Of a stretch of DNA of 32,000 bases, positions 9,019-30,976 are shown piece after piece. Source of the DNA: Opitutales bacterium. Its GTDB lineage: Bacteria; Verrucomicrobiota; Verrucomicrobiia; Opitutales; PNEW01. Below the pieces are notes generated by a model. It searched no databases, had not been told where the DNA came from, and saw only the letters and a list, made by a program, of their open reading frames with translations. Position 1 is the first letter of the stretch. Every line of letters begins with the position of its first letter. A program made the position numbers and the translations under genes. Location of the stretch: the NCBI GenBank assembly GCA_965219535.1, contig CBDCNV010000002.1, forward strand, positions 1,560,001 to 1,592,000, in the 5' to 3' direction.

Positions 9019-9798
9019 TTGGAAGATTATACGCAATATAAAGAGAGCTACGATCGCGATGGATTTGTCTTAATACGAAACTTTCTATCGGCGGATGAAT
9101 GCGAGCCGTTGTTCGCAGCCCTCGATCGCTATATCCGCGAGGTGGTACCTTTAATTCCAGACGAGTCCGCTTTCTACCAGGACAAGTCACGACCCGAGAC
9201 GCTGAAGCAGATGCACCATCTAGCAAAATATGAACCGTACTTCGAGGAGTATAGTCGCCACCAAAAATGGAATGTCCTGGCCAGAACCTTGATCGGCGAG
9301 GAAGCTCACTCAGCAGGTCCCGAGTGGTTTAACAAGCCGCCGAAAACAGACCATCCCACACCGCCTCACCAGGACAACTTTTATTTTAAGCTCAGCCCTC
9401 CTAATGCTGCCTCGGTCTGGATGGCTATCGATCCGGTCGACGAGGAAAACGGATGTTTACGCTACAATCCCGGTTCTCACCTGCGAGGTATTCGTCCGCA
9501 CGCACTGACATCCGTCCTTGGATTTTCGCAGGGCATTACCGATTACGAATCTAAAGATGAAGCGATGGAAGTGATGGTGGAAATGCAACCGGGTGATGCC
9601 GTTGTCCATCACGGAGATGTCATCCATCGCGCCGAACCGAACAAATCAACTACCCGACATCGTCGAGCTTTTGCTATGATATACTATGGCGTGAGTTGTA
9701 AAGTTGACGAGGAGGCAAAGCAGATACTTGATGAAAACTTAAAAAACCAGCATCGTGAGATGGGACTTGATACCGAAACATCTGTGATTAACAGTTGA
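9019..9798 (+). CDS. PhyH family dioxygenase, tandem paralog 1
   Basis: TTG start. 'DGFVLIRNFL', H-x-D in 'PPHQDNFYF', 'NPGSH' and distal 'VVHHGDVIHRAEPN'. Confidence 0.8.
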   Translation: MEDYTQYKESYDRDGFVLIRNFLSADECEPLFAALDRYIREVVPLIPDESAFYQDKSRPETLKQMHHLAKYEPYFEEYSRHQKWNVLARTLIGEEAHSAGPEWFNKPPKTDHPTPPHQDNFYFKLSPPNAASVWMAIDPVDEENGCLRYNPGSHLRGIRPHALTSVLGFSQGITDYESKDEAMEVMVEMQPGDAVVHHGDVIHRAEPNKSTTRHRRAFAMIYYGVSCKVDEEAKQILDENLKNQHREMGLDTETSVINS

Positions 9799-9819: not shown

Positions 9820-10602
9820 ATGGACGACTATACGCAATATAAAGAGAACTACGATCACAATGGATTTGTCGTAGTACGGAATTTTCTATCACCGGATGAA
9901 TACGAGCCATTGTTTTCGGTCCTCGAACGCTTCATCCGCGAGGTGGTACCTTCAATCCCAGACGAGGCCGCATTCTACCAGGACAAGTCACGACCTGAGA
10001 CGCTGAAGCAGATGCAGCACATGGCAAAATTTGAACCGTATTTCGAGGAGTATAGTCGACACCCAAAATGGAATGCACTGGCCAGTACCTTGATCGGCGA
10101 GGAAGCTCACACGACAGGCCCCGAGTGGTTTAACAAGCCGCCACAAACAGATCATCCCACACCCCCTCACCAGGATAACTTTTATTTTAAGCTCAACCCT
10201 CCAAATGTTGCTTCGGTCTGGATGGCAATCGATCCGGTCGACGAGGAGAATGGCTGTTTACACTACATTCCCGGCTCTCACCTGCGGGGTATTCGGCCGC
10301 ATGCACTGACAACCGTCCTTGGTTTTTCGCAGGGCATCACCGATTACAGCCCCAAAGATGAGGAGATGGAAGTGATGGTAGAAATGCAACCGGGTGATGC
10401 CGTTGTCCATCACGCAGAAATCATCCATCGCGCCGACCCGAACCAAACAGCAAGCCGACACCGTCGCGCTTTAGCCATGGTATACAACGGCGTGAGTTGT
10501 AAAGTCGACGAAGAGGCAAAGCAGTTACATATAGAAGAATTTAAAAACCAGCACCGTGAGATGGGACTTGATACGAAGACACCTGAAGCGAAAGTGAATT
10601 AA
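9820..10602 (+). CDS. PhyH family dioxygenase, tandem paralog 2
   Basis: ATG start. Colinear with paralog 1, with roughly four fifths of residues identical by eye. Same H-Q-D and distal His motifs. Confidence 0.8.
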   Translation: MDDYTQYKENYDHNGFVVVRNFLSPDEYEPLFSVLERFIREVVPSIPDEAAFYQDKSRPETLKQMQHMAKFEPYFEEYSRHPKWNALASTLIGEEAHTTGPEWFNKPPQTDHPTPPHQDNFYFKLNPPNVASVWMAIDPVDEENGCLHYIPGSHLRGIRPHALTTVLGFSQGITDYSPKDEEMEVMVEMQPGDAVVHHAEIIHRADPNQTASRHRRALAMVYNGVSCKVDEEAKQLHIEEFKNQHREMGLDTKTPEAKVN

Positions 10603-15064: not shown

Positions 15065-15799
15065 GGGTCATGCCTAGAACAGAGGGTATCTTAAGCACAT
15101 ATTAAGGATGTTACGATGGAGGTTTTGATGACGATGGTTAAAGCGATATTCAGTTTCTTTGAGGTGCAGTTGGAAGGTCCTACGAGAAAGACCTTTGAAC
15201 TTAGCCAATCGAAGTTTAGCAAAAGCCCAAAAAGATTCAATCCCGTTAATGTGGGAGTGTCCCTGGGCAAACTCGTTGTCGTTGTGATTGACACGGTAAT
15301 GCTTCTTATAGCCCAGATCCACGAGGCCGTTGTAAGCACGCCACCCGTCAGAATAAAGCACACTGTCAAAAGTAACTCTCCCTTGGATCACCGCATGCAG
15401 AGCGGCTCTGGAGACGTTGCGTACAACCTGGGTATAGACTTTCCCATTACGCTTGAGCAACCCGAAGACGGGCACTTTCTTGAATGCACCCCGACCTCTT
15501 TGCCCTGGAATTCTTTTGCCTCCAAAGTAGGACTCATCCATTTCCACCGACCCCCTAAAAGGCGAGGCCTGCGCACATTGCTGCAACAAACGCTCCCGCA
15601 ACAAGCGCAAATAACGGTTGACCGTGTTACGATTCAATCCTGTCAATTGGGTTATCTTCAACGCTTCCATATCCAAGCTAAAACACTTTACTAACTGCCG
15701 AAATTTGGCCTCAGAAATTTTTGAACGATGTACATACTTATTTCTCATTTGTCTAGAATAGCTTACACATCTGATATGTGTCTATTCTAGGCATGACCC
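15065..15799 (-). mobile_element. IS1595-family (IS1016-like) insertion sequence, 735 bp
   Basis: Terminal inverted repeats GGGTCATGCCTAGAA(C/T)AGA, with the first 15 bp perfect. Flanked by the 8-bp direct repeat TTAAATTT (15057-15064 and 15800-15807). Confidence 0.9.
15074..15748 (-). CDS. IS1595/ISXO2-like DDE transposase
   Basis: 'VEMDESYFGGKR', 'SDGWRAYN' and 'HINGIESFW' motifs. The stop codon lies inside the left inverted repeat. Confidence 0.85.
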   Translation of the reverse strand: MRNKYVHRSKISEAKFRQLVKCFSLDMEALKITQLTGLNRNTVNRYLRLLRERLLQQCAQASPFRGSVEMDESYFGGKRIPGQRGRGAFKKVPVFGLLKRNGKVYTQVVRNVSRAALHAVIQGRVTFDSVLYSDGWRAYNGLVDLGYKKHYRVNHNDNEFAQGHSHINGIESFWAFAKLRLAKFKGLSRRTFQLHLKETEYRFNHRHQNLHRNILNMCLRYPLF

Positions 15800-18702: not shown

Positions 18703-20171
18703 GTGAAAATGGAAATCAAAGGGGTATCTATCATAGGTTTTAACGATGGAGCGGAAAGCGGCCAATCGGTAAGAGCGGTCAATCCATCAACTGGACAGGA
18801 AATCGAACCGCCATTTATCCAAGCCACAACGGAAGAGATCGATCAGACGGCGGAACTTGCGCATAAGGCATTTCTCGAATACAGCCAATTAAGCGGCGTC
18901 GACAGGGCACGATTTCTAAATGAAATCGCAACGCAAATTGAAACCATTGGAGATACAATTACCCCAAGGGCGATGGAAGAGTCCGGTTTGCCTGAGGTTC
19001 GCATTAAAGGTGAAATTGGCAGAACTACAGGGCAGTTGCGTTTATTCGCCTCCATTATTGAGGAAGGATCCTGGCTCAATGCTCGCATAGACACGGCCTT
19101 ACCCGATCGGCAACCGCTCCCTAAACCTGACGTTCGAGCGATGCAACGTCCCCTTGGTCCGGTCGTTGTCTTTGCCGCGAGCAATTTTCCCCTGGCCTTT
19201 TCCACCGCGGGTGGTGATACCGCATCGGCTTTGGCCGCTGGTTGTTCAGTCATTGTCAAAGCGCATTCCTCGCACCCGGGAACCGCGGAACTGGTAGGTA
19301 GGGCAGTGAGAGAAGCCGCCACTGTGACGGGTATGCCCGATGGCGTATTCAATGTGATGTTTGGCAGCGGTCGCTCTGTAGGATCAGCTCTTGTCAGCCA
19401 TCCGCGGGTCAAGGCTGTCGGATTTACAGGTTCGACCGCCGGCGGTACCGCACTGATGAAGCTGGCATCTAAACGGGCCGAGCCCATTCCTGTCTACGCT
19501 GAAATGGGTAGCGTAAACCCGGTTTTCATACTTTCGGGAGCTCTTGCCGAGCAGTCCGATTCGATCGCCAGTGGTCTCCACGCATCGGCTACGATGGGGG
19601 TAGGGCAGTTCTGCACAAATCCCGGCGTAGTCATGGTGCAGCAAGGTGAGCAAGGCGAGACTTTCAAAGAAAGTTTCACAAAGTTGATGAGGGAACACGC
19701 CGATGAAGTCATGCTCAATCATTCAATCCAAAAGGCTTATTGCGAAGGTGTGTCTTCACGTGAGAGCAATAACAATGTGGAAGTTTTAGTTTCATCCGAT
19801 ACCGACAGTGAGTCCGGACCCAGTCTCGGGTCCCCAGCAGTATTTCAAGCGACCACTGAACAATTCCTCAAAGACTCAAGCTTGAGCCACGAAATTTTCG
19901 GACCGGGGACGACCCTGATACGTTACAATTCAAAGGAGGATCTACTGAAGATTGCCGAAAACCTGACGGGCCAACTCACCGCCACGGTGCATGGATCGGA
20001 GGCGGATTTAAATGAGCACACCGATTTAATTGCTATTTTGGAACGTAAGGTAGGGCGCATTTTATTTAATGGATTTCCCACCGGTGTTGATGTTTGTCCC
20101 TCCATGGTTCATGGCGGACCGTTTCCCGCTACCTCGGATGGGCGCAGTACTTCCGTAGGTACTTTTGCGAT
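18703..20171 (+). pseudogene. aldehyde dehydrogenase (2,5-dioxovalerate / alpha-ketoglutaric semialdehyde dehydrogenase-like), 5' part, interrupted by an IS
   Basis: 'NPSTGQEI', 'FAASNFPLAFS', 'EMGSVNP' and catalytic-Cys block 'GQFCTNPG'. The frame runs into the IS, which adds only G-I-I-stop (track end 20184). The start is GTG 18703 or ATG 18709. Confidence 0.8.
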
Positions 20172-20310
20172 GGGAATTATATAGTTAAGTCCTTTTTCTT
20201 TTTTCGTTTCGATCTGGCTCGCTTTTTAAGTCGATTATTTTGAGCCTCATTTTTGGGTTTTGGTCTATAACTAAGAACTTTTTTTGTAATCGCTTCCAAT
20301 ATTTGAGATT

Positions 20311-21237
20311 TCATTTCGTCAACTCCTCATAGGTTAGTCTCCGACCAATGCACGCTTGAATGAAACTATCCAGTCGGGCGAGTGTGTGGCGCGTGCAGTT
20401 TCCTTCATTTAGTCTGAAAGAAAATTCGTTTACGTAACGTGCCAAATGCTTTGGGCTTGCGTGATGGTAGACACCATGTAGACCCCGCTTTAGAACTGAA
20501 AATACGCTTTCAATGCTGTTTGTGGTCACGTCTCCCCTAGAATATTCACCTTCTCCATGATTTACCGTTTCGTGCTGGAAAAATAATCCGTCAACTGGGA
20601 TGTATGATTTCGCTTCATCGCTGTGGATTTTTGACCCCACCTCAATATTCTTGTGGACATGTTTTAATATTGTATTTGAGTCCACGCTTTTTACTGGGGT
20701 TGCAATGGTTTTCCCGTTCCGCTCTCGCATTCCGAGAACTGGAGTCTTCCCAATTGAGCCACGGCCTAAGTTGACTTTTTTCTGCTCATGTTTGTTCCCT
20801 TCTTTCCCTCCGATGTAGGTTTCATCGATTTCAACGATCCCTCGGAGTTTTGGAAGATCTTTCCCGCATGCTTCTCTGAGTCGCTGGAGAATAAACCAAG
20901 CTGTTTTTTGGGTGACACTGATTTCTTTAGAAAGTTGCAGCGAACTAATTCCTTTACGAGCAGTAACCAGCAGATACATTGAATATATCCATTTTCTCAA
21001 AGGAACGTGTGAGCGTTCGAAAATCGTGCCCGTTCTAACGGTGAAATCTTCTTTGCAATTGTTACAACGGAAATAGCCAACCCTTTTCCTTTTTGTGATG
21101 TTAGTTTGCTTGTCGCAAACCGGACATTGAATATCATAAGGCCACCGGCGAGACTCCAAAAAGAGTCTCGCGGTGTTTTCGTCTGGAAACATTTCGAGTA
21201 ACTGAAACGTGCTGATCGTTAGGTTATCTTGTGCCAT
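20311..21237 (-). CDS. IS1595-family transposase (N-terminal zinc ribbon plus ISXO2-like DDE domain)
   Basis: 'CPVCDKQ...FRCNNCKEDF', 'VEIDETYIGGKEGNKH', 'HSDEAKSY' and 'TNSIESVFS'. Confidence 0.88.
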   Translation of the reverse strand: MAQDNLTISTFQLLEMFPDENTARLFLESRRWPYDIQCPVCDKQTNITKRKRVGYFRCNNCKEDFTVRTGTIFERSHVPLRKWIYSMYLLVTARKGISSLQLSKEISVTQKTAWFILQRLREACGKDLPKLRGIVEIDETYIGGKEGNKHEQKKVNLGRGSIGKTPVLGMRERNGKTIATPVKSVDSNTILKHVHKNIEVGSKIHSDEAKSYIPVDGLFFQHETVNHGEGEYSRGDVTTNSIESVFSVLKRGLHGVYHHASPKHLARYVNEFSFRLNEGNCTRHTLARLDSFIQACIGRRLTYEELTK

Positions 21238-21253
21238 ATGATTTCAATTATAT

Positions 21254-21442
21254 TTAAGAGTTTTGATCTGAAGGAAGTGGATACCCGTATGGGTCTATTG
21301 ACCAAATCACTCCCTCTTTGGGTGTGGGGTTAGGAATGTCGCTTTTCATCCTCTCTTCCAATGTTCGGGATACTAGTTTTTGAAGTTGTCCAGAGTGAGT
21401 TGAAATTGAGATTGCTCCGTTTGAGAGTATAGTGGTTTTCAT
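21254..21442 (-). CDS. small passenger ORF (62 aa) inside the IS
   Basis: Its start overlaps the upstream ORF stop (ATGA at 21439-21442), and it ends 16 nt before the transposase ATG. No family recognised. Confidence 0.35.
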   Translation of the reverse strand: MKTTILSNGAISISTHSGQLQKLVSRTLEERMKSDIPNPTPKEGVIWSIDPYGYPLPSDQNS

Positions 21443-21624
21443 TTTATTTCTGTTGCGGTTAGAATTTGAATTGCTTGTTCAAGTTTTCCTGAGGTATGAA
21501 TTTTTTCACCGTATAAATCTTCCAAATATCCGATTTTTGCAAGTCTTTGAGAAGGTGCAGTATAGCGTGCTAAATTTGGGTTTGATTTTGTTGAGATTCT
21601 ATAGATTTTTTGTTCTTTTTTCAT
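21439..21624 (-). CDS. small passenger ORF (61 aa) inside the IS
   Basis: First gene of a co-directional 61aa-62aa-transposase array. It is preceded by an AT-rich region of about 150 nt that ends at the right inverted repeat. Confidence 0.35.
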   Translation of the reverse strand: MKKEQKIYRISTKSNPNLARYTAPSQRLAKIGYLEDLYGEKIHTSGKLEQAIQILTATEIK

Positions 21625-21794
21625 TGTTAAATTAAATCTAATATATTTAAATCCCTCACAATGTCAAGGGATTTAAGTATATATTTTAATATTTCTTACA
21701 TTTTTATATAGTTTATTATCATACACTTACAGAATACATGTAAAATAAGTGAAATAATTCTTAATATTTTCGGGGACTTAACTATATAATTCCC

Positions 21795-21926
21795 TTTGCG
21801 ATAGACAGATTTACCCGACTCGTGGCCTATCAAAATTGTCCTCAATCCTTGCTGCCCGATGAACTGAAAGATAGCAATCCACTGAAAATTTCACGGATGA
21901 TCAACGGTCAACGGACTGAAGACTGA
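21795..21926 (+). pseudogene. displaced 3' end of the aldehyde dehydrogenase gene
   Basis: Removing the IS and one TSD copy restores ...VGTFAIDRFTRLVAYQNCPQSLLPDELKDSNPLKISRMINGQRTED*, with stop at 21924-21926. This matches the usual C-terminus of this ALDH subfamily as I recall it. Confidence 0.8.
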
Positions 21927-21962: not shown

Positions 21963-23627
21963 TCAATCACCCTTTGTGAACCTATTGAGGACATTCCGTG
22001 TAATGGTCTCTGTGTAGTAGTCCTTAAATTTCAGTCCCGCAACCCATTCACAACTCCCGGCGTGAAACACCGTACCCTTGCCACGGGTGAAGGTGACGAT
22101 CATGCCGTTCCCCCGCGCGCCAGCCTTCCCGGTTTCTTCCGTTATCTCTCCCTGGCGGATCCGACCGATCCTTTCCGAGTCATCACCGTAGTACAAGTTG
22201 GTACCCCTGTGGCCGTGGTCGGCTTCCTTATTGGAAGCCAAAGCCATGGCGAGAATCTCTGTTGTTTCCGGTGCGCCGTCCTTGAAGGTCGGAAACGGCT
22301 CACCGTCGCGGAAGGTGTAATCGAGCCCGTCAACCTCATACCCAAAGATGCGCGCGTTCGCACCGAAATCGTCACCGTAGTAGAGGTCAGTGCCTGTAAA
22401 AGCCCAATGTTCCGGCCGGTAGACCGTGAAACCCCCAGTGCCGCGGGGGACATTGACTCCTACGTGGTCGTATATCCCATAGGTTGAATTGAGCCCGAAA
22501 GTCTCGGCCCCTGGCCAGCCAACCTGGGGATCCTCCCAGAGACTGGTTAAACGGCGTTTCCTGTCCGTCTTCAAGATAGGATCTTTTTTTCCGGCCAATT
22601 CCTTGTAGCAGACCTGCGTGCGGCCCTCGTCTTCCAGTCTGATTTGCCAGGCGAAGTTGCCGGCAAAACGTGCGACATGGCCACCCCTCTCCACGTAGCG
22701 GTCGATAGCCTCGCGCATTTCCCAGGACCAGTACTCATCATGGCCCACGAGGACGACGCACTTGTAGTTATCGAGCAGGTCTGGACTGTAGTGCAGATCC
22801 AACTGGGTGGCAAAATCCATAGGGAAGCCGTTTTGCTCCGCCCATGTGACGAAGGGCCGTTCGTAAGTGGCCCAGCCGCAATTGGAGAACCACTTGCTGT
22901 AACCCCGTGTGTGGGCAAAATCGATCACGGGGTAGACTGGGATCGAATTGGGAACGATGGGGAAATGATGAGGCTTGCGGGGCGAACCCTCAGGCGACCA
23001 GATGATGCCGCGAGCAAAGGGTCGATGGATCGAAAGCCTCGGTGCGAAGGTGAAATCATCGGGCAAGTTATACCCCATATAGTGATTGATGCCACCCCAG
23101 TCGTTATAGGCTGTCCAGGTGCAGATGGCCGATATGAACAGGATCTCTGCGTTCCTGCCGGGCTGGGTTGGACGGACAAAAAAACCATGCTCCTGCTCAC
23201 GCCGTTCACCCACCTCATTGGTCACACGGGAAATGATCATATAGAAGCCCGAGGGCAAGTCACGGGGTAGTCGCCAGCTGTAACTGACCGGCCAACCACA
23301 TCCATTCTCATAAAAATCCGCTGGCAGCGGATTGATTTTGCCCGGCAACTTGTCGACTTTATGGACGGTCTTGGGTGCGCAACCGTCTTGAATAATCTCG
23401 ATGGAAAATTCTTTCGCCGTAGTGCTGGTATGAAAGTGAATTTCTTCACCGGGGAGATAGGAGATCTTGTCTGTGTAGCACCAGACTTCGAGATAGTCGG
23501 GATCTTCCAATGGAGCTTCGTAAAACTCCGCTTTGGTTGCATCGAATCCCTGACCACGGGGGATGAACATGGCTCCCTTCGAGGTGAAAAAGCCGCGACC
23601 GATTTTCGGTATCGTATTCTTCGTCAT
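21963..23627 (-). CDS. N,N-dimethylformamidase beta-subunit-like (DUF6605-type) protein
   Basis: 'ILFISAICTWTAYNDWGGINHY' resembles the family signature. ATG 23627 (MTKNTIPK) is chosen because 23628-23702 belongs to the conserved non-coding module shared with two other loci. Confidence 0.5.
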   Translation of the reverse strand: MTKNTIPKIGRGFFTSKGAMFIPRGQGFDATKAEFYEAPLEDPDYLEVWCYTDKISYLPGEEIHFHTSTTAKEFSIEIIQDGCAPKTVHKVDKLPGKINPLPADFYENGCGWPVSYSWRLPRDLPSGFYMIISRVTNEVGERREQEHGFFVRPTQPGRNAEILFISAICTWTAYNDWGGINHYMGYNLPDDFTFAPRLSIHRPFARGIIWSPEGSPRKPHHFPIVPNSIPVYPVIDFAHTRGYSKWFSNCGWATYERPFVTWAEQNGFPMDFATQLDLHYSPDLLDNYKCVVLVGHDEYWSWEMREAIDRYVERGGHVARFAGNFAWQIRLEDEGRTQVCYKELAGKKDPILKTDRKRRLTSLWEDPQVGWPGAETFGLNSTYGIYDHVGVNVPRGTGGFTVYRPEHWAFTGTDLYYGDDFGANARIFGYEVDGLDYTFRDGEPFPTFKDGAPETTEILAMALASNKEADHGHRGTNLYYGDDSERIGRIRQGEITEETGKAGARGNGMIVTFTRGKGTVFHAGSCEWVAGLKFKDYYTETITRNVLNRFTKGD

Positions 23628-23646
23628 CTCGAAATCGCCCGAGTAT

Positions 23647-23794
23647 TCAGATAAGAAATCGCCTTTGCGCCGGTACAGACACGCTCTCTTAGAGGCCGGC
23701 ATGAACCAGCGGTTTCATGGTGATTCATTGTGAGACCATCCTTAAACTGCCCCGAAAATGCGAGAACAATGTAAGATCACCCTTCGCGCGATCG
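23647..23794. promoter_or_regulatory. conserved intergenic module, copy A (full length; function unknown)
   Basis: Left arm TTCAGATAAGAAATCGC..GCCGGTACAGACACGC. Core GGTTTCATGGTGATTCATTGTGAGACCAT. Right arm GCGAGAACAATGTAAGAT..CCTTCGCGCG. It lies between divergent genes. Confidence 0.6.
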
Positions 23795-23993
23795 TCATTG
23801 GCCTCCGATTGTAAAGGAGGAGCCCGCCGAATACGACGCCTGTCCCCCCGGCTTTCCTGAACCCCTGCTTGTCTCGGCTGACCTGTCTCGGCGAAGTCGA
23901 CAGACGTATCAGGAAGCGTCGCGAAGACGGGCCGCAAGGAACTCTTTTTCACTTGCGAGCTGAGACCCGAACCAATGTGTTGTCTTCTATCTC

Positions 23994-25190
23994 ATGCGAG
24001 ATTCGCTTCTAAACTTGATGCTCTCAGTCACGGCCTCGGTCGCGATGGTTCTCCACACGGCTATCGGGGAAACCGCTGCCCCCGACAATCCGGACGCAAT
24101 CGCCAACGAGACCGACACAGCGGCTGTTGAAAAATCAACCACTTACGACCGCATCTGGCGCGTTGGAACACTCTACAAGAACGAAGACAACCCGGTCATG
24201 CAAAAGTTTGTCCTGACCGGACGAGCTCAAGCGGATGCAGCGTTCTTCGATGGCGGTCAGGGAGATTATAACCGGCTCGACTGGCGCCGATTCCGTTTTG
24301 GCTTCAAGTCCTCCCTGTTTCAGAATTTTGTCCTGCACTTTGAAGGTGACTTCAACTTGAATAATCTTGATTCGGATCAGACCGAGGATGTTTATACGAG
24401 ATTCACCGACTTCAACCTAGGCTGGTCTCAAAGCGATGCCTTTATGTTGAAGATTGGCAAGCAATCCACTCCTTTTACCCTCGACGGCGCCACCTCTTCC
24501 AAAAAACTAATCACGCTCGAGCGAAGCACGGTCGCGACGAATCTCTGGTTTCCCACTGAATACTTCACTGGTGTATCGGCACTCGGCAAGATTGGCAACT
24601 GGAAGTACCACACGGGGATTTTTTCCTCAAGCGGTGATGATGAGTTCAGTCGCTTCGACAGTGGCTACTTTGGTCTCGTGTCTCTCGAATATAACTTCAG
24701 CGATTCCACAGGTCTCGACACCTCCCTCGTCCGCATCGATTACGTTTATAACGATCCAGATTTCAGTGGTGACGTCGGAACTCGCGAACTCAGGCAAGTG
24801 GTCTCGTTGACAACCAAGTTCGAGAACGGACGCTACGGAATCTGGTCGGACATCTCATTCGGTGACGGTATCGGGAACCAGAGCGATCTCATGGGCTTCC
24901 AAGTAATGCCTTACTACGAAATCACGGACAAGTGGCAGCTGGTATTTCGGTATTCGCTGGTCACCAGTTCGGCGGATAACGGGGTCCGGCTCAACCGTTA
25001 CGAAAGCCGGATCGAGCTCGGTCGCAGCGACGAAGCTCACGAGTACTTTCTCGGCCTCAATTGGTATCTTAATGGGCACAAGCTGAAGTGGCAGAATGGC
25101 GTTGAGTACACGCACTCCTCCGATTCAGCGCGGGACGGTGGAGCCTACAACGGCTGGGGCTTTACCTCGGGAATCCGCCTTAGTTGGTGA
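23994..25190 (+). CDS. outer-membrane porin (phosphate-selective porin O/P-like)
   Basis: N-terminal signal-like segment and an alternating beta-strand pattern. 'YFLGLNWYLNGHKLKWQNGVEY' and an aromatic C-terminus '...GIRLSW'. Confidence 0.65.
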   Translation: MRDSLLNLMLSVTASVAMVLHTAIGETAAPDNPDAIANETDTAAVEKSTTYDRIWRVGTLYKNEDNPVMQKFVLTGRAQADAAFFDGGQGDYNRLDWRRFRFGFKSSLFQNFVLHFEGDFNLNNLDSDQTEDVYTRFTDFNLGWSQSDAFMLKIGKQSTPFTLDGATSSKKLITLERSTVATNLWFPTEYFTGVSALGKIGNWKYHTGIFSSSGDDEFSRFDSGYFGLVSLEYNFSDSTGLDTSLVRIDYVYNDPDFSGDVGTRELRQVVSLTTKFENGRYGIWSDISFGDGIGNQSDLMGFQVMPYYEITDKWQLVFRYSLVTSSADNGVRLNRYESRIELGRSDEAHEYFLGLNWYLNGHKLKWQNGVEYTHSSDSARDGGAYNGWGFTSGIRLSW

Positions 25191-26271
25191 CCTGGAACTG
25201 CATCAGAGCATCAAAATCGAAATCGATACCGTGGCCGGGCCGGTCAGGCGCTACAGCGTAGCCCTGGTCAATTTCAAAAGTATGTGTCATGAAACGCTCA
25301 AGACCGAAGCCATGTATTTCCACGTAGGCAGCATTAGGCGAAGCGGCTAAAAGATGAATATGCAACTGATGAGCGCCATGAGAAATCAACGGTAAGTTGT
25401 GGGCTTCCGCAAGGCGGGCCACTTTCATGAAGGAAGTAATACCGCCGCAGGTGGTCAGATCTGGCTCCGGGAAATCTACGCATCCTCGATTGATAAGCTC
25501 CCTGAATTCCGCCAGGGTATGCAAGTTCTCACCAGCTGCCAATGGGACCGGACTTTTTTGCCGAAGGTGCGTGTAGCCGTCAAAGTCATCTGGTTTAAGC
25601 GGTTCTTCGAGCCATATCAGATCAAATTCCGCAAGCCTTTGCGTTGCCCGGGTTGCCTGATCAATACTCCAAGCTTCATTTGCATCAGTCATCAATTCGA
25701 TGTCATCACCAATATGTTTCCGCATCTCCGCTACTCGCGTCAGGTCCTCGGCCAATGTAGGCTTGCCAAGACGCATCTTAACCGAACGGTGTCCCTCATC
25801 GATGCTTCTGCTTGCACCTTCCAACAGTTCCTTAACGGGCAAATTCAGGTCGATATTCCCAGCGTAAACCTTCACACGGGGATTGAACCCACCGAGTAGT
25901 TGCCACAATGGTTGCCCCAAAGCCCGGCCCTTTAAGTCCCACAAGGCGGTATCTACCGCAGCGATGGCAAAACTGACCGGTGCGCCGCGACCGGCATAAT
26001 GGTGCCGGTGCCACATACTGTGCCAGAGAAATTCTATGTTGCGTGAATCCTGTTTCATGAGCTTGTCGCGAAAGACCTTATCTATGATTATTGCAATGGC
26101 CGGGCCCTGACCTTCAAGCATGACTGAATAGCCAACACCAGTGGCTACGTTTTGGGTGTTTATACGGACCATCACCATATCAAAAGCGTGCATAACGCCC
26201 GCCGCCGCCGCTTCCATGGCAACGGGAAGTGGAATGCGAAATGTATCGACCGTCAGTCTTTCAATGAGCAT
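25180..26271 (-). CDS. enolase-superfamily enzyme (mandelate racemase/muconate lactonizing family; likely acid-sugar dehydratase)
   Basis: Metal-ligand blocks 'MTDANEAW', 'WLEEPL' and 'AAGENL', plus 'KMRLGKP'. AGGAGGGG lies 3 nt upstream of ATG 26271. The longer track start falls in the conserved module. Confidence 0.8.
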   Translation of the reverse strand: MLIERLTVDTFRIPLPVAMEAAAAGVMHAFDMVMVRINTQNVATGVGYSVMLEGQGPAIAIIIDKVFRDKLMKQDSRNIEFLWHSMWHRHHYAGRGAPVSFAIAAVDTALWDLKGRALGQPLWQLLGGFNPRVKVYAGNIDLNLPVKELLEGASRSIDEGHRSVKMRLGKPTLAEDLTRVAEMRKHIGDDIELMTDANEAWSIDQATRATQRLAEFDLIWLEEPLKPDDFDGYTHLRQKSPVPLAAGENLHTLAEFRELINRGCVDFPEPDLTTCGGITSFMKVARLAEAHNLPLISHGAHQLHIHLLAASPNAAYVEIHGFGLERFMTHTFEIDQGYAVAPDRPGHGIDFDFDALMQFQVTN

Positions 26272-26300
26272 TTTCCCCTCCTCTGTCCTTTGTTTTCTCA

Positions 26301-26454
26301 GTTCAGAAATCGCTTTAAGTCCGGTATAGATACGCACCGGTTGAAGCCGTCCTGAAACATAGGTTTGAGGTGATTTTTTGCGAGACCATGCTCCAACTGC
26401 GCCGAGAAAGCGAGAACAATGTAAGGTTTACCATCGCGCAGTCGGGGATTGCGC
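26301..26454. promoter_or_regulatory. conserved intergenic module, copy B (full length)
   Basis: GTTCAGAAATCGC..TCCGGTATAGATACGC ... GGTTTGAGGTGATTTTTTGCGAGACCATG ... GCGAGAACAATGTAAGGTTTACCATCGCGCAGTCGGGG. It lies between divergent genes. Confidence 0.6.
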
Positions 26455-26566
26455 GTCTCATCTGCAACAGCCCCGTCCCATGGCTAAGTTTTAACCGATC
26501 GCGTAGATCTTGACTCGTCTGAGGGGGGAATTCAGATTGGCTCGTCATGGAGCGAACACCGAATCG

Positions 26567-27328
26567 ATGATCAGTCCGGAAGAGAAGTTCAGGTTCGATT
26601 TGCAAGGTTATCTGGTGGTCAAGAACGCCCTCGCGCCCGAAGAGGTGGCGGAAATGAACCGGATTGCCGACGAGATGTATACGGAAGATTACGACGAGAA
26701 GAGAATGCGTTCCCGTCAGCACGTATCGCAGTGGGGGCCATCCTTTCAATCGCTTATCGACCATCCCTCAGCCTTACCCTATCTGGTGGAATTCCTTGGA
26801 CCGAAATTCCGTATCGATCATGATTATAACATTTTTATGATTAAAGGAAGCGCGCACGGGCGCATTCACGGGGGACCCGCGCTGGAGACCGGGATCGAGG
26901 AGGACCACTGGTACCGTTGCCACAAGGGAGTGATCCGCAATGGACTGACGGTTTTTACTTATTGCCTTACACCAGCGGGTCCAGGAGATGGGGGTTTTAT
27001 TTGTGTTCCAGGATCTCACAAGAGCAATTTCGTGATGGATATCCCGGAAGAGGTGAAGTTGCAGGAAAGCAATGCCGATTACGTTGTCCAGCCGACGGCG
27101 GAGGCTGGTGACCTGATAATATTTACAGAGGCTCTCGTTCATGGCACTCGTGCTTGGACGTCAGATCACGAGCGACGTGCCCTGCTCTATAAATACAGTC
27201 CAGGGCACTCTTCATATAGCCAGACTTACTATTGTCTGGAGGATTACCCGAACGCGACAGAACAGCAGTTGCGGATCATGGCAGCTCCGTCCGTCGGTAG
27301 CCGCCCCAATAGTATCCAGTCTAAGTAA
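26567..27328 (+). CDS. PhyH-like protein with H-G-G in place of H-x-D
   Basis: 'FDLQGYLVVKNAL', 'GRIHGGPALE' (His codon at 26867-26869), 'ICVPGSHKSNF' and distal 'EALVHGTRAW'. ATG 26567 is preferred over TTG 26510. Confidence 0.7.
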   Translation: MISPEEKFRFDLQGYLVVKNALAPEEVAEMNRIADEMYTEDYDEKRMRSRQHVSQWGPSFQSLIDHPSALPYLVEFLGPKFRIDHDYNIFMIKGSAHGRIHGGPALETGIEEDHWYRCHKGVIRNGLTVFTYCLTPAGPGDGGFICVPGSHKSNFVMDIPEEVKLQESNADYVVQPTAEAGDLIIFTEALVHGTRAWTSDHERRALLYKYSPGHSSYSQTYYCLEDYPNATEQQLRIMAAPSVGSRPNSIQSK

Positions 27329-27375
27329 CCGGCGAGTCATCCATGCACCACGGATTAAATCCACAACAGTTTCAG

Positions 27376-27471
27376 CAGTTCCATGGTGATACATTGTAAG
27401 ACCATGCCCGAACCGCACCGAGACGGCGAGAACAATGTAAGATTTACCTTCGCGCGGTCGGGGTTACTGCG
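27376..27471. promoter_or_regulatory. conserved intergenic module, copy C (core plus right arm only)
   Basis: CAGTTCCATGGTGATACATTGTAAGACCATGCCCGAACCGCACCGAGACGGCGAGAACAATGTAAGATTTACCTTCGCGCGGTCGGGG. It ends directly at ATG 27472. Confidence 0.6.
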
Positions 27472-29142
27472 ATGAAGGGACAACGCTTGGTCTTGTGTTT
27501 ACTGGGAGCCACCTTCATCGCGGCCTGCTGTGCGGACGCCAGCGCCCAGACGATTGCTCAAGAAATCGCGGCTGACAAAACGCGCGTGGGTCGCGTTGTC
27601 CACGCCTGGGATGGGTGCTCGATGTGGTCGTCTATCCTGAATGTTGATTACTACGGTCCCCCGAATCGGGAAGTCCCTGCACCCGCAGCTGAATTCAGCA
27701 AAAGGATTCTCGAGGAATTGGTTGATGAAGAGGCGGCTGCCCACGTTGACGCCATTGCCTACTGTCTATTTACCGCGTTCTGTAGCGAACTGCCCGCGTC
27801 CAAGTTAACCGACATATTTCCCTGGCGCCCGCCCGGGATGGACGAGGTGGGAATGGACCCCTTGAAGGTCTTGATCGACCGCTGCCACCATCACGGCATG
27901 AAGTTTATCGCCGACATTCGAATGAACGACCGGCATGGGGACCGGCAGGGAATCGCGAAAGAACACCCCGAATGGATCATTCTCGGATCGGCCAACGATT
28001 ACGCGCTGGACGAGGTCCGTGACGCGATGCTGGCCTTCACCAAGGAGGTGCTCGACGGCTATGAGGTGGACGGTATCGAGTACGATTACATGCGCTGGTG
28101 CCACATGTTCAAGCCGGGCGAGGGAAAACAGAACGCCCATTTGCTGACTGAATTTACCCGCAAAACTCGCCAGTTGCTGGACGAGGCGGCCAAGCGGCGA
28201 GGGATTGACCGATTGGAGTTTGGTGTGCGGGTGCCCCAAAGCATCGCGGAATGCGATTATTTGGGCTTTGACGTGGCCACGTGGATCAAGGAGGGCCTGG
28301 TCGATTTCGTGGTACCGTCCGACTTTATGCACTCGGACACGAACATGAGGACCGAAGACTTTGTGAAGCTGGCCGAGGGAACAAGCTGCAAGATTTATCC
28401 CGCCATTCACAACCGTATCTCCATGGACGGGCCAAATGAGCATTATCGACTCATGAGTCTGGCGAACATGCGGGCCGCGGCGCAGAATTTCTATGGCTTC
28501 GGTGCCGATGGCGTCTCTCCCTATAACTACCAGTTTGCCTTCGAGAGACGAGCCGTGGCGCACCGTTCATCGGCCTATGCCGCCTACAAATGGCCGGCGG
28601 CGTTGGGCTGGCTGCGGGAGCTGCGCTATCCAGACCAGGTTAGCCAGCGGGACCGCCACTACCTGTTCTATGCGGTCTGGAAGAAGCCCAGTAACCATAA
28701 ATCGCCGAGCGGTTTTTTCCATGATGACAACATCTATCTGGACCGTGCCGAGCCGGTCCTCGAGGGGAGTCGGCGTTTTCGTATGGCGGAGGATTTCAGC
28801 AATCCGAACTTACGAACGACGATGCAATTCAAGGCGGTTGGCATGGCCAAGAATGAGAAGCTGGAAATACTGATTAACGGCAAGCAGGTCCCCATCGACT
28901 ACATCACGCGCGTGCAGGACAAAAACGGGCAGAACCTGTATGAGGGCGATCCGCTGCCTCCGTTCTACTTGTACCTCGTCGACATGAACTGGGAGACGAC
29001 GGGCCGCGACCAACCCCTCGTCTTCGGCGACAACAAACTCACGGTCCTCCTCGTCCCGACCGATGCCAAGGAGGACGGCCAGGTGAGCATCGAGGAGCTG
29101 GAGTGCTACGTGTACGTGCGAAAGCCGAAACGGCCACAATGA
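27472..29142 (+). CDS. secreted protein, TIM-barrel glycoside-hydrolase-like (family not resolved)
   Basis: Signal peptide MKGQRLVLCLLGATFIAACCADASAQ. The blocks 'GMKFIADIRMNDRHG', 'HPEWII' and 'VDGIEYDYMRW' resemble uncharacterised GH-like barrels. Confidence 0.4.
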   Translation: MKGQRLVLCLLGATFIAACCADASAQTIAQEIAADKTRVGRVVHAWDGCSMWSSILNVDYYGPPNREVPAPAAEFSKRILEELVDEEAAAHVDAIAYCLFTAFCSELPASKLTDIFPWRPPGMDEVGMDPLKVLIDRCHHHGMKFIADIRMNDRHGDRQGIAKEHPEWIILGSANDYALDEVRDAMLAFTKEVLDGYEVDGIEYDYMRWCHMFKPGEGKQNAHLLTEFTRKTRQLLDEAAKRRGIDRLEFGVRVPQSIAECDYLGFDVATWIKEGLVDFVVPSDFMHSDTNMRTEDFVKLAEGTSCKIYPAIHNRISMDGPNEHYRLMSLANMRAAAQNFYGFGADGVSPYNYQFAFERRAVAHRSSAYAAYKWPAALGWLRELRYPDQVSQRDRHYLFYAVWKKPSNHKSPSGFFHDDNIYLDRAEPVLEGSRRFRMAEDFSNPNLRTTMQFKAVGMAKNEKLEILINGKQVPIDYITRVQDKNGQNLYEGDPLPPFYLYLVDMNWETTGRDQPLVFGDNKLTVLLVPTDAKEDGQVSIEELECYVYVRKPKRPQ

Positions 29143-29251
29143 ATTAAAACCTATCCTAAATCCCCCTCCCCGTCTGCGAAGTGAGTTGGTTTCGACTGGG
29201 TGATGTGAAGGAATAGAAAGTTCGCCGACGACCGGAGAGCCTTGTTACGAA

Positions 29252-30703
29252 TCAAAACCCGATCAGCTTCCGAGCCAGCCCAAAACCGCTCGTCACCGCA
29301 AAGATGATGAGAATGACCGATGATATCGCCGACCCGATCAATATCGGGGCGCGGGTACGATAGACAGCGGGGAGCTTGAAGTTCAAATAGAGGGCGACGA
29401 CCATGATGAGAGCGATGGAAAAATTAACGGAGAGAAAACCGACGATCTGAATGAGCGTATTGAAAGGTATATTCGACCATACAAGCACCATGGTGACGAG
29501 AAAGATATAGAGGCAGATGGCGCGCTTGACTCCGCGAAAGGACCACCTGCGCTGAGGCCAAATGGCTTCAAGGAACTCATTGGACACACGAGCGTAGATT
29601 TCGGGCAGCGCCTGCAGCGATCCCCACAGCGCCGCGATGATGCATACGTAATAGATCCAAACGAGCGTCGGATGTATGGCGGCCCACACGTGCGCTTGAT
29701 TCGTCAATAAACTCCAGCCCTCGAACCGGCTCTGAAGCGGCATCAGAACCACTGCCCCGGACAGCATGAATGCCGCCGTCACGATAAACAGGACGAGCGC
29801 TCCCATGCTGACATCCCAATGGAGCGGTGAGCATAGCCGCCGCAGGCGGTCGACTGACTCGGGATCTTCGGGAAGATAGTCGATACGCTCTCTCGTCAGA
29901 GCGTGGCTACGAATAGCGTCGATGTCCTTGTGGCTGTTGAGGCCCCACTTGTGCATACCGACCCAGTGGGCGTAGACGACGTACGCCATCACCGAGCCAC
30001 CGACGTATCCGAATGTTGTCGCCATCGTCAGCATGCGGTGCTTGACGGCGTCATCCGGGGCCCACGGGGGAAACTCAGGAATATAGCCGAAGCTGAACGT
30101 GCCGACGAGTGCTTGGAAGAAATCGGGCCGGACCATGAGGGTTCCGATGATTGTGCCGCTCACCAGAATTCCACAGATCAAAAGCTGTTGCTTTTCCACC
30201 TTCTCGTAGGAGAGGCTGATACCGAGTCCCAGCGCGAGCGCGATGAAAAAGGTGGAGATGAGATTCTCCCACACGGGTTCCGAAAACGTGTCGGGGAATG
30301 GCAGGACGTGGTGAAACAGATCCCCGCACGGTTTCGCAATTGCCACCCATCCCATGGGCGCGGCAATAATTTCCATCAATAGAATGAGGATAAGCACCCA
30401 ACCTCGCGGTCCCGGGAATTTCACTATCCGGTTTCCGATAAACTCGCCGCTGACCGCGGTGTAGCGGCCGATCAAGTAGAGAACGAAGATTCCCTTGACG
30501 AGGCAACTGAGCAATACGAGCCACAGCAGATCATAACCTGCCCAGGCACCGGCTCGAACGACGACGATTGTCTCACCCGCACCGATTGCCACGGAGGCAA
30601 CGATGGCCGCCGGACCGAACACGCCTAGCAAGCCGACGAGCTTCTTCCACGACCACGGTTCAGAGAAGACCCCCTCGAGTTGGGGGATGTCGAACTTCTT
30701 CAT
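29252..30703 (-). CDS. NRAMP-related polytopic transporter
   Basis: About 11-12 hydrophobic segments. 'FGPAAIVASVAIGAGETIVVVRAGAWAGYDLLWLVLL' resembles the NRAMP TM1-TM2 region, but no DPGN motif is present. Confidence 0.6.
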   Translation of the reverse strand: MKKFDIPQLEGVFSEPWSWKKLVGLLGVFGPAAIVASVAIGAGETIVVVRAGAWAGYDLLWLVLLSCLVKGIFVLYLIGRYTAVSGEFIGNRIVKFPGPRGWVLILILLMEIIAAPMGWVAIAKPCGDLFHHVLPFPDTFSEPVWENLISTFFIALALGLGISLSYEKVEKQQLLICGILVSGTIIGTLMVRPDFFQALVGTFSFGYIPEFPPWAPDDAVKHRMLTMATTFGYVGGSVMAYVVYAHWVGMHKWGLNSHKDIDAIRSHALTRERIDYLPEDPESVDRLRRLCSPLHWDVSMGALVLFIVTAAFMLSGAVVLMPLQSRFEGWSLLTNQAHVWAAIHPTLVWIYYVCIIAALWGSLQALPEIYARVSNEFLEAIWPQRRWSFRGVKRAICLYIFLVTMVLVWSNIPFNTLIQIVGFLSVNFSIALIMVVALYLNFKLPAVYRTRAPILIGSAISSVILIIFAVTSGFGLARKLIGF

Positions 30704-30738
30704 GGTAGCAATAATAACACCGTGCCAGTTATTCAGAT

Positions 30739-30860
30739 TTCAGATAAGAAATAGCTTTTCAGCCGGCACAGACACGCGCCCGATGAGGCAGACATGAAGC
30801 AGCGGTTTCATGGTGATTCATTGCGAGACCATGCCCGAACTGCCCTGAGAAGGCAAGATT
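30739..30860. promoter_or_regulatory. conserved intergenic module, copy D (left arm plus core; right arm truncated)
   Basis: TTCAGATAAGAAATAGC..GCCGGCACAGACACGC ... GGTTTCATGGTGATTCATTGCGAGACCATGCCCGAACTGCCCTGAGAAGGC. The GAGAACAATGT block is missing, and homology stops at AAGATTT. Confidence 0.6.
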
Positions 30861-30976
30861 TCGCTCTTGTCTAACACACCGGCGATACAGAGCCAGCCGC
30901 GGGTGTCGAAGATGTATTTTTGCTCGTGGGTCAGTTCGACTACGGGTAATCCATCCGCGTCGATGAGTTCGGACAT
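30818..30976 (-). pseudogene. 5' fragment of a PhyH-like gene, running into module copy D
   Basis: MSELIDADGLPVVELTHEQKYIFDTRGWLCIAGVLDKSEI matches the N-termini of the 14130 and 26567 proteins (FDL(R/Q)GYLV...). The next 12 codons and the stop are module sequence. Confidence 0.6.

Follow-up and report, generated by a model that had tools for sequence, protein, structure and literature searches.

In a 32,000-nucleotide stretch of an Opitutales bacterium genome (the window; contig CBDCNV010000002.1, positions 1,560,001 to 1,592,000), a non-coding module of ~150 nt recurs in front of genes of unrelated families. The module lies immediately 5' of at least four transcription units, which encode DMFA2_C-like, MR_MLE, Nramp-like, and aldo-keto reductase (AKR) proteins, and a half copy lies 5' of a gene for a GHL10-like protein. 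On balance, we favor the explanation that the copies are upstream regulatory DNA duplicated into a family, young and lineage-restricted, of the "reused" or "putative mobile" promoter type. The module would act at the DNA level by supplying a promoter and/or sites for a common regulator, and genes recruited into the island that holds the copies would thereby be expressed together. A new copy would be formed by illegitimate, microhomology-mediated recombination that places a gene next to an existing copy, rather than by transposition, and copies within one genome would occasionally exchange sequence. Promoter or operator activity of the module and co-regulation of the adjacent genes are what we infer from the DNA sequence.

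Copies of the Module

The module is composed of a right arm, a core (pattern GGCAGTT..GCATGGTCTCGCAATGAATCACCATGAAAC, also written as GGCATGGTCTCGCAATGAATCACCATGAAACCGCTGTTTCA), and a left arm. There are five copies, all within ~13 kb, of which four (A to D) are in the window and the fifth (E) is ~4 kb past the window end. The four copies in the window had been reported, all in the same orientation, in a preliminary description of this DNA and were recovered by a repeat search, by degenerate patterns, and by a hidden Markov model (HMM). That set is right for the window but stops short of copy E. The HMM was built from the copies and was run with nhmmer on the window, the surveyed stretches of the source contig, and the fetched loci; genome-wide scans used the exact core pattern. 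In the window the HMM matched positions 23642-23798, 26293-26449, ~27372-27465, and 30735-30859 and nothing else. The repeat search returned family D2 (four copies, 88 nt), family D3 (the left arm three times, 69 nt), and family D4 (A versus D, 120 nt). Three degenerate patterns, one for each part of the module (core, right arm, left arm), matched 4, 3, and 3 times, respectively, only at the copies, with 0.00 expected from 100 shuffles.

Copies A and B are full length. Copy A (23642-23798, minus strand; nhmmer E = 1e-51) belongs to repeat families D2-D4, and copy B (26293-26449, minus strand; E = 1e-45) occupies the intergenic region between the divergent MR_MLE and PhyH genes. Copy C (27382-27465, minus strand) consists of the core and right arm only and is found on the 5' side of the plus-strand GHL10-like gene. 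Copy D (30735-30859, minus strand; E = 7e-41) has the left arm and core, with the right arm replaced. This distribution of the arms is as previously described. However, copy C had been given a start at 27376, which is corrected here to 27382 because positions 27372-27381 are homologous to an uninterrupted site in a related contig (L018, below). Copy E is at 4603-4740 of L009 (window ~35964-36101), has the opposite orientation to A-D, and has the AKR start codon adjoining its left arm. L009 is a stretch of the source contig, ENA ERZ25067264:ctg827606 (106 kb), and was found via the Nramp protein; the contig and the window differ by 1 mismatch in 12,749 overlapping bases. The span surveyed on the source contig totals ~49 kb, made up of the 13-kb island and another ~36 kb in which no further copy was found.

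Aligned paralogous copies are 67-86% identical, close to the 75-85% previously estimated by eye, and copy B is the most diverged, as had also been noted. Copies A and D are 82% identical over 120 nt, D and E are 82-86% identical, and C and B are 76-84% identical. Among the copies, C is nearest to B, with 84.5% identity to the B copy of L018, and shares 14 nt of the right flank of B; copy E is nearest to copy D. Copy C traces to a B-like copy and copy E to a D-like one. From paralogue distances of 14-33%, the duplications could date to about the time when the sampled lineages split or to somewhat earlier.

Among 185,579 genomes, one per species, the exact 20-base core pattern matched only the Opitutales metagenome-assembled genome (MAG) OY829953.1 (4.49 Mb; loci L001 and L002). 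The two matches are upstream of the DMFA2_C and AKR orthologues, and a third, slightly mutated copy is upstream of Nramp. The MAG is 96.5-98.5% identical to the window genome at the nucleotide level in two shared genes and appears to be conspecific with the source of the window or a close relative of it. A 19-base pattern searched against 241 million metagenome records gave six matches, two of which are on true contigs, L005 (with Nramp) and L006 (with MR_MLE). The other four, and all viral matches, are attributable to chance, and at least one of them is inside a coding sequence. L005, L006, and L018 are metagenome contigs from one related lineage, L018 joining the gene sets of the other two. 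Plasmid, phage, and viral-contig collections contained no true match to the module, and an origin from any of these sources was rejected.

Orthologues of copy A (L001 840-992 in the MAG), of copy B (L006 2-136 and L018 9817-9962), and of copy D were identified. The D orthologue of the MAG (L002 2249-2373) has the same truncation as the window copy, whereas those of the related lineage (L005 8678-8828 and L018 7177-7322) are full length and beside tRNA-His. In the latter regions (L018 7092-7348 and L005 8599-8854) the D copy starts 2-3 nt past the 3' end of tRNA-His(GTG). Copy positions are stable across lineages that are ~20% apart at 4-fold degenerate sites. No module is present upstream of Nramp orthologues at 88, 83, 82, and 77% amino acid identity, so the family is confined to a narrow clade.

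Nramp orthologues without the module (L010 9850-10000 and L013 9899-10000) share another, short upstream motif, CATG(GT)GCTATTTTGG, which is similar to an extended -10 (TGcTATTTT). This motif may be the ancestral Nramp promoter in the group.

Position Relative to Start Codons

The strongest argument for a function comes from position. The left arm (TCAG...) ends 19 nt before the ATG at copy A, 26 nt at B, 36 nt at D, and 12 nt at E, in line with the 20-35 nt previously given for the three minus-strand genes. The right-arm extension of copy C, which had been described as abutting ATG 27472, stops 6 nt short of it. Relative to the start codons, the copies span about -15 to -190. Every copy with a left arm faces an adjacent start codon, in the window genome (A, B, D, and E), in the MAG (A, D, and E), and in the L005/L006/L018 lineage (B and D). 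In copy E, the right arm directly follows a co-directional GFO_IDH_MocA gene at its stop codon, and the copy fills the space from that stop codon to the last 12 nt before the AKR ATG. Because the module is nearly all of the upstream DNA in these compact intergenic regions, we take it to carry promoter or regulator sites. The flanking genes are indeed of unrelated families, with Pfam matches to DMFA2_C, Porin_O_P, MR_MLE, PhyH, GHL10 (weak), and Nramp.

The preliminary description had proposed either a shared bidirectional promoter/operator or a structured leader RNA, with a mobile element as the alternative. The shared promoter/operator is the best supported half of that proposal, on position, on orientation, and on the published definition of promoter reuse (discussed below). 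Bidirectionality is not general. Copy B does lie between divergent genes and copy C does lie at a plus-strand gene, but the flanks of D (a tRNA gene in L018 and L005, a gene fragment in the window) and of E do not conform. The genes may form the single regulon, for a substrate left unnamed, that had been suggested.

The same positions bear on a rival explanation, that the copies are neutral duplication or recombination remnants, scars of island assembly that persist only through youth and have no regulatory role of their own. We consider this unlikely: all four left-arm copies are at most 36 nt from a start codon, in the same orientation, and are kept in three lineages, and the compact intergenic regions leave the module as essentially the sole upstream DNA, where the sequences that drive the genes must lie.

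Rearrangement Junctions and the Spread of Copies

The island in L018 has the order tRNA-His, copy D, Nramp, PhyH, copy B, MR_MLE, porin, aldehyde dehydrogenase. It contains neither copy C with the GHL10-like gene nor copy A with DMFA2_C, and copies A, C, and E were not seen there. Junction alignments against L018 8740-8980 delimit the segment comprising copy C and the GHL10-like gene to 27382-29214; in L018 25 nt stand in its place. The left breakpoint, at 27381/27382, is exactly at the first core base (CATGG). It is beside a microhomology, CAG(C/T)(G/A)GTT(T/C), in which the empty site GCAGTAGTTC resembles the element sequence CAGCGGTTT. The right end of copy A is a rearrangement point between the window and the MAG, the truncated right arm of copy D is fused to a PhyH-like N-terminal fragment in both the window and the MAG, and the right arm of copy E is trimmed at a stop codon. 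The coincidence of copy edges with rearrangement points, together with the L018 junction, indicates that copies move with genes by illegitimate recombination and not autonomously. A further, less likely reading is that the module is an actively propagating regulatory cassette, the core of which would be a preferred recombination site that recruits genes into the regulon. That the boundaries of several copies match breakpoints (C at its left end, A at its right end, and D and E where the right side is truncated) is also a point in favor of neutral remnants.

In the MAG, copies D (L002 2249-2373) and E (L002 7475-7621) are 86-92% alike, and each is 86-90% identical to its window orthologue, which hints at gene conversion between the two MAG copies.

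At L001 2675-3848 the MAG shares DMFA2_C, copy A, and the porin with the window, with no open reading frame (ORF) of at least 100 aa at the place of MR_MLE and copy B. Because the MAG is without such an ORF after the porin, island content differs even at a genome identity of 95-98%.

A non-autonomous mobile element (a MITE, for miniature inverted-repeat transposable element, or one of the Correia or ERIC-like kind) that inserts near gene starts would also give a repeated ~150-nt intergenic unit, and transposases of the IS1595 and IS481 families are nearby. The copies vary by lineage, A, C, and E being those not seen in L018, and the D copy of L018 and L005 lies between the halves of an 8-bp inverted repeat (CAGCTATT ... 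AATAGCTG). That repeat is absent at the other copies, and its chance of occurrence is ~0.2 as judged by shuffling. We nevertheless regard a mobile element as highly unlikely. No terminal inverted repeats (TIRs) are shared: the best terminal inverted alignments score 7-10 versus 6.5-6.9 for shuffles and differ among the copies, and the repeat search reported no inverted pair at the element ends. The sole empty-site comparison, with L018, reveals microhomology and 25 replaced nt but no target-site duplication (TSD), and the inserted unit is 1.8 kb, half an element plus a whole gene. A MITE, which had previously been said to be recognizable by scattered copies without bias toward start codons or by TSDs, was rejected on the TIR search and the empty-site junction. 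There are just five copies, all clustered in 13 kb with none in the other ~36 kb surveyed, all left arms are at gene starts, and positions are stable across lineages that are ~20% different at synonymous sites. The absence of copies from the plasmid, phage, and viral collections points the same way. An integron attC-like site was also rejected, since the annotated genes include no integrase, R''/R' core sites are absent, and genes have the element on their 5' and not their 3' side.

Tests for a Structured RNA or a Leader Peptide

A structured 5'-leader RNA, riboswitch-like or protein-binding, that is transcribed from the minus strand and controls the downstream genes in cis would suit an element of ~150 nt, a length typical of leaders, placed directly upstream of transporter and catabolic genes. 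Both inverted repeats named in the preliminary description are present; in copy A they are CATGGT (23716-23721) with ACCATC (23735-23740) and CATTGT (23726-23731) with ACAATG (23766-23771). Nevertheless, Rfam searches, folds, covariation, and shuffled controls gave no signal of such an RNA, and it was rejected as very unlikely, if slightly less so than a mobile element. Rfam 15 gave 0 matches with gathering thresholds; when the cutoff was relaxed to E ≤ 10, a single match within the copies appeared, to the sR12 snoRNA (E = 8.8) at 30714-30764, partly on the left arm of copy D. Ten single-sequence folds (five copies, both strands) had z-scores of -1.38 to +1.24, and the structures were mutually inconsistent. 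RNAalifold applied to eight copies gave -15.1 kcal/mol for the gene strand and -13.5 kcal/mol for the other strand with covariation terms that were penalties (+1.84 and +2.17, respectively), and the consensus energies equaled those of column-shuffled controls (z = +0.21, -0.57, +0.49, and +0.07).

A few changes are G-U-compatible on the gene strand. However, 0 of 12 pairs in the CATGGT/ACCATG and CATTGT/ACAATG helices are compensatory, and all departures break pairs, no better than in shuffles. Within the hairpin, mutations accumulate freely in the 3' half, but the 5' half (ATGGTCTC) does not vary, which suits a DNA motif better than a helix. In addition, intact genes keep a D copy without a right arm, and close Nramp orthologues are without the module. 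The family is young, leaving little time for covariation to build up. Indeed, a new and very young lineage-specific riboswitch-like class, in which a transcribed leader senses a metabolite or binds a dedicated RNA-binding regulator, would have a structure that goes undetected by covariation in a family of such recent origin and small size (~11 sequences, five paralogue lineages). We judge such a class to be quite unlikely.

A coding role for the module, as a short leader peptide or a small protein (MVIHCETMPELPRE... on the plus strand or MNHHETAVSGR... on the minus strand), is extremely unlikely. Several copies do have open frames that start with ATG, and the stop codon of the minus-strand upstream ORF in copy A overlaps the DMFA2_C start (ATGA). 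However, the plus-strand frame is prematurely stopped in copy D of the window and copy A of the MAG, and its ATG is lost in copy B. On the minus strand, copy B has no such frame, copy E has it with a frameshift, and an early stop cuts it short in the D copies of the window and L005. Variable sites do not have a 3-nt periodicity (23/16/24), and small ORFs on either strand were rejected on these grounds.

Public gene calls place two protein starts inside the repeat, giving DMFA2_C 579 aa (L009 17002-18741, window 21963-23702) and MR_MLE 385 aa (L009 14367-15524, window 25180-26337). The in-frame upstream extensions carry stop codons in orthologues, in the MAG for DMFA2_C and in L018 for MR_MLE. 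N termini that reach into the element were therefore rejected, the true starts being ATG 23627 and ATG 26271 and the public calls over-extended. The stops in the orthologous extensions and the lack of 3-nt periodicity make the module non-coding.

Sequence Constraint and Promoter Signals

A number of results weigh against a regulatory role for the module. The divergence of orthologous copies roughly equals or exceeds that of synonymous sites, so selection on the whole module is weak. Between the window and the MAG, copy A is 92.6% identical (7.4% divergence) compared with 98.4% (1.6%) for the 4-fold sites of DMFA2_C, and copy D is 88.4% identical (11.6%) compared with 92.9% (7.1%) for 4-fold sites. 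Between the window and L005, copy D is 80.2% identical (19.8%; core 87.9%, left arm 71.9%) compared with 78.9% (21.1%) for 4-fold sites. Invariant columns, 59 of 122, are not significantly clustered (permutation p = 0.08-0.27), and motif islands were rejected on this test. A consensus scan and position weight matrix scoring against shuffles detected no consistent sigma-70 promoter in any copy, and there is no regulator gene among the annotated genes in the ~49 kb examined. No single part of the module is demonstrably required, because copy D in the window and the MAG is without the right arm and copy C is without the left arm.

The near-neutral or faster evolution of the A and D orthologue pairs, the unclustered invariant columns, and the Nramp orthologues without the module at 77-88% identity are likewise points for neutral remnants. 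In contrast, copy B is more conserved than 4-fold sites (92% between the window and L006 versus 83% for the 4-fold sites of MR_MLE). Across the MR_MLE/PhyH intergenic region, window versus L018, the B copy is 91.1% identical and the non-repeated remainder 90.7%, both above the 4-fold value of 83% (from L006, of the same lineage). By its divergence, the module behaves as ordinary upstream DNA would, the core being at most mildly constrained.

Four sequence features could be candidates for function at the DNA level: an invariant block, a direct repeat, a near-palindrome, and an arrangement like that of promoters for extracytoplasmic function (ECF) sigma factors. The invariant block is ATGGTCTC.CAA..AATC, and the direct repeat is CAT(T/G)G(T)TCTCGC with ~31 bp between repeats. 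The near-palindrome, TGAAxC-N4-GTTTCA, has the 16-bp forms TGAAACCG and CTGTTTCA and is at the boundary of the core and left arm (23702-23717 in copy A), where it may be an operator or contribute a -35-like GAAAC. Its pattern has matches inside A, B, and D only, plus one unrelated site, and searches with TGAAAC-N4-GTTTCA and the core motif found no extra operator copies outside the module.

Promoters for ECF sigma factors have an AAC at -35 and a TC at -10, as in GGAACTT-N16-TCAAA for E. coli RpoE. On the gene strand, most copies have the pattern (T)GAAAC-N18-TC(A/T)A(A/C), in which the T and C of the second box are invariant, suggesting an ECF-sigma-like promoter. A sigma factor dedicated to the island would be consistent with the presence of several such promoters there. 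However, the likeness is a pure pattern match, the most conserved block of the module (the core) is upstream of the putative -35 box, and the AAC is lost in copy A of the MAG (GAATT). The 49 kb examined yielded no gene for an ECF sigma or anti-sigma factor.

Two other promoter candidates were rejected. A sigma-70 candidate on the plus strand, TTGAGG-N17-TTTCAT, is weak and recurrent, does not outscore shuffles, and has no counterpart in copy C. A sigma-54 candidate in the core, TGGTGATTCATTGC, rejected by eye, has a GG-to-GC spacing one base short of TGGCAC-N5-TTGC, and its GC is not conserved (A and C have TTGT).

Genes of the Island and Its Surroundings

Copy A precedes the DMFA2_C-like gene (21963-23627, minus strand, ATG at 23627; Pfam PF20254, E = 1.6e-71). 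Copy B precedes the MR_MLE gene (25180-26271, minus strand, ATG at 26271; Pfam MR_MLE_N and MR_MLE_C), which encodes an acid-sugar dehydratase-like member of the enolase superfamily; its best NCBIfam match is to L-talarate/galactarate dehydratase, below the cutoff of that family. Directly downstream of the right arm of copy C is the gene for the GHL10-like secreted protein (27472-29142, plus strand; Pfam GHL10, 29 bits, weak). Copy D precedes the gene for the Nramp-family transporter (29252-30703, minus strand, ATG at 30703; Pfam PF01566, NCBIfam Nramp_1), and the gene downstream of copy E is that for the aldo-keto reductase (Aldo_ket_red). A fragment like a PhyH N terminus (30860-30976, minus strand; blastp 31% over 26 aa to PhyH N termini, E = 0.001 in a nine-protein set) reads into the truncated right side of copy D, and this rearrangement junction is also present in MAG locus L002.

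The island encodes MR_MLE, aldo-keto reductase, GFO/IDH oxidoreductase, aldehyde dehydrogenase, Nramp-like transporter, and PhyH dioxygenase proteins. The aldehyde dehydrogenase resembles 2,5-dioxovalerate/alpha-ketoglutaric semialdehyde dehydrogenase. This gene content suggests a role in oxidative sugar or sugar-acid catabolism. None of the island proteins reaches an NCBIfam equivalog cutoff.

In L018 and L005 the island begins right after the tRNA-His gene. The G+C content of the window steps up near 21900, from ~0.42-0.50 to the left of an insertion sequence (IS) to ~0.51-0.62 in the repeat-bearing island, and this rise may reflect a horizontal origin of the island. The IS is of the IS1595 family and extends from 20162 to 21804, with 31-nt TIRs (87% complementary) and a 308-aa transposase (20311-21237, minus strand; Zn_ribbon_IS1595 and DDE_Tnp_IS1595). 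It truncates the aldehyde dehydrogenase gene at 18703-20184 (493 aa compared with 528-550 aa in L018 and L006), and the segment of copy A and DMFA2_C adjoins it. A second IS1595-type transposase ORF (15074-15748, 224 aa), with DDE_Tnp_IS1595 only, is probably a degraded copy.

PhyH-family genes are dense in the window, at 1471, 5700, 9019, 9820, 13209, 14112, and 26567, in addition to the fragment at 30860-30976, and two further PhyH genes are upstream of the window on the same contig. A tandem pair, 9019-9798 and 9820-10602, is 86% identical in DNA sequence over 300 nt (repeat D1, 801-nt period). The region 1084-1427, between the genes at 414-1046 and 1471-2304, contains short direct repeats (180-215-nt period) and acidic-codon repeat runs of the GACGAAGAC type.

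Comparison with Known Systems

If the module is a shared promoter/operator, the island would represent regulon growth in progress in an uncultured marine lineage that degrades polysaccharides. The recruited genes (DMFA2_C-like, GHL10-like, and AKR) would have been wired in by copying ~100-150 bp rather than by evolving new sites, and the module would mark a putative co-regulated set of acid-sugar dehydratase-like, aldo-keto reductase, Nramp-like, DMFase-like, and PhyH-family dioxygenase genes. No new class of mechanism is opened by these results. The related contigs provide before and after states plus one exact breakpoint, which is rare for promoter reuse.

The Correia, ERIC, and REPIN repeats resemble the module in being intergenic, in having a length of ~100-150 nt, and in that they can sit upstream of genes and affect expression. 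They differ in that they have TIRs or palindromic hairpins of their own and TSDs (TA for Correia) and are dispersed in either orientation as tens to hundreds of copies, none of these features being found for the module. Riboswitches and other leader RNAs are, like the module, ~150 nt long and located upstream of genes for transporters and catabolic enzymes, but the module does not have the conserved structure, covariation, Rfam match, or phylogenetic breadth of these RNAs.

The closest likeness is to putative mobile promoters, the reuse of which in prokaryotes was reportedly described by Matus-Garcia, Nijveen, and van Passel in 2012. As far as the account in PMC3575422 goes, these are non-coding sequences of at least 80% identity over at least 50 nt, located in the -150 to -50 region upstream of non-homologous genes in one genome; they belong to no known IS or Rfam family, and that account leaves their mode of movement as unknown (PMC3575422). 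For several pairs of module copies, A and D among them, identity of at least 80% extends over >100 nt, and the adjacent DMFA2_C, MR_MLE, Nramp, Aldo_ket_red, and GHL10-like genes are unrelated. The module and the putative mobile promoters of that account are thus alike in being similar non-coding DNA before non-homologous genes with no IS or Rfam family. Compared with the same account, the module copies are more diverged (67-86%), and there are five in one 13-kb island rather than a dispersed pair. The module is, by this comparison, a fairly ordinary, lineage-specific case of well-documented upstream-region reuse, with promoter activity that is putative, as it is for most published putative mobile promoters. 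A further difference from the cases in that account is that here the comparative contigs show one copy arriving together with a gene at a microhomology breakpoint.

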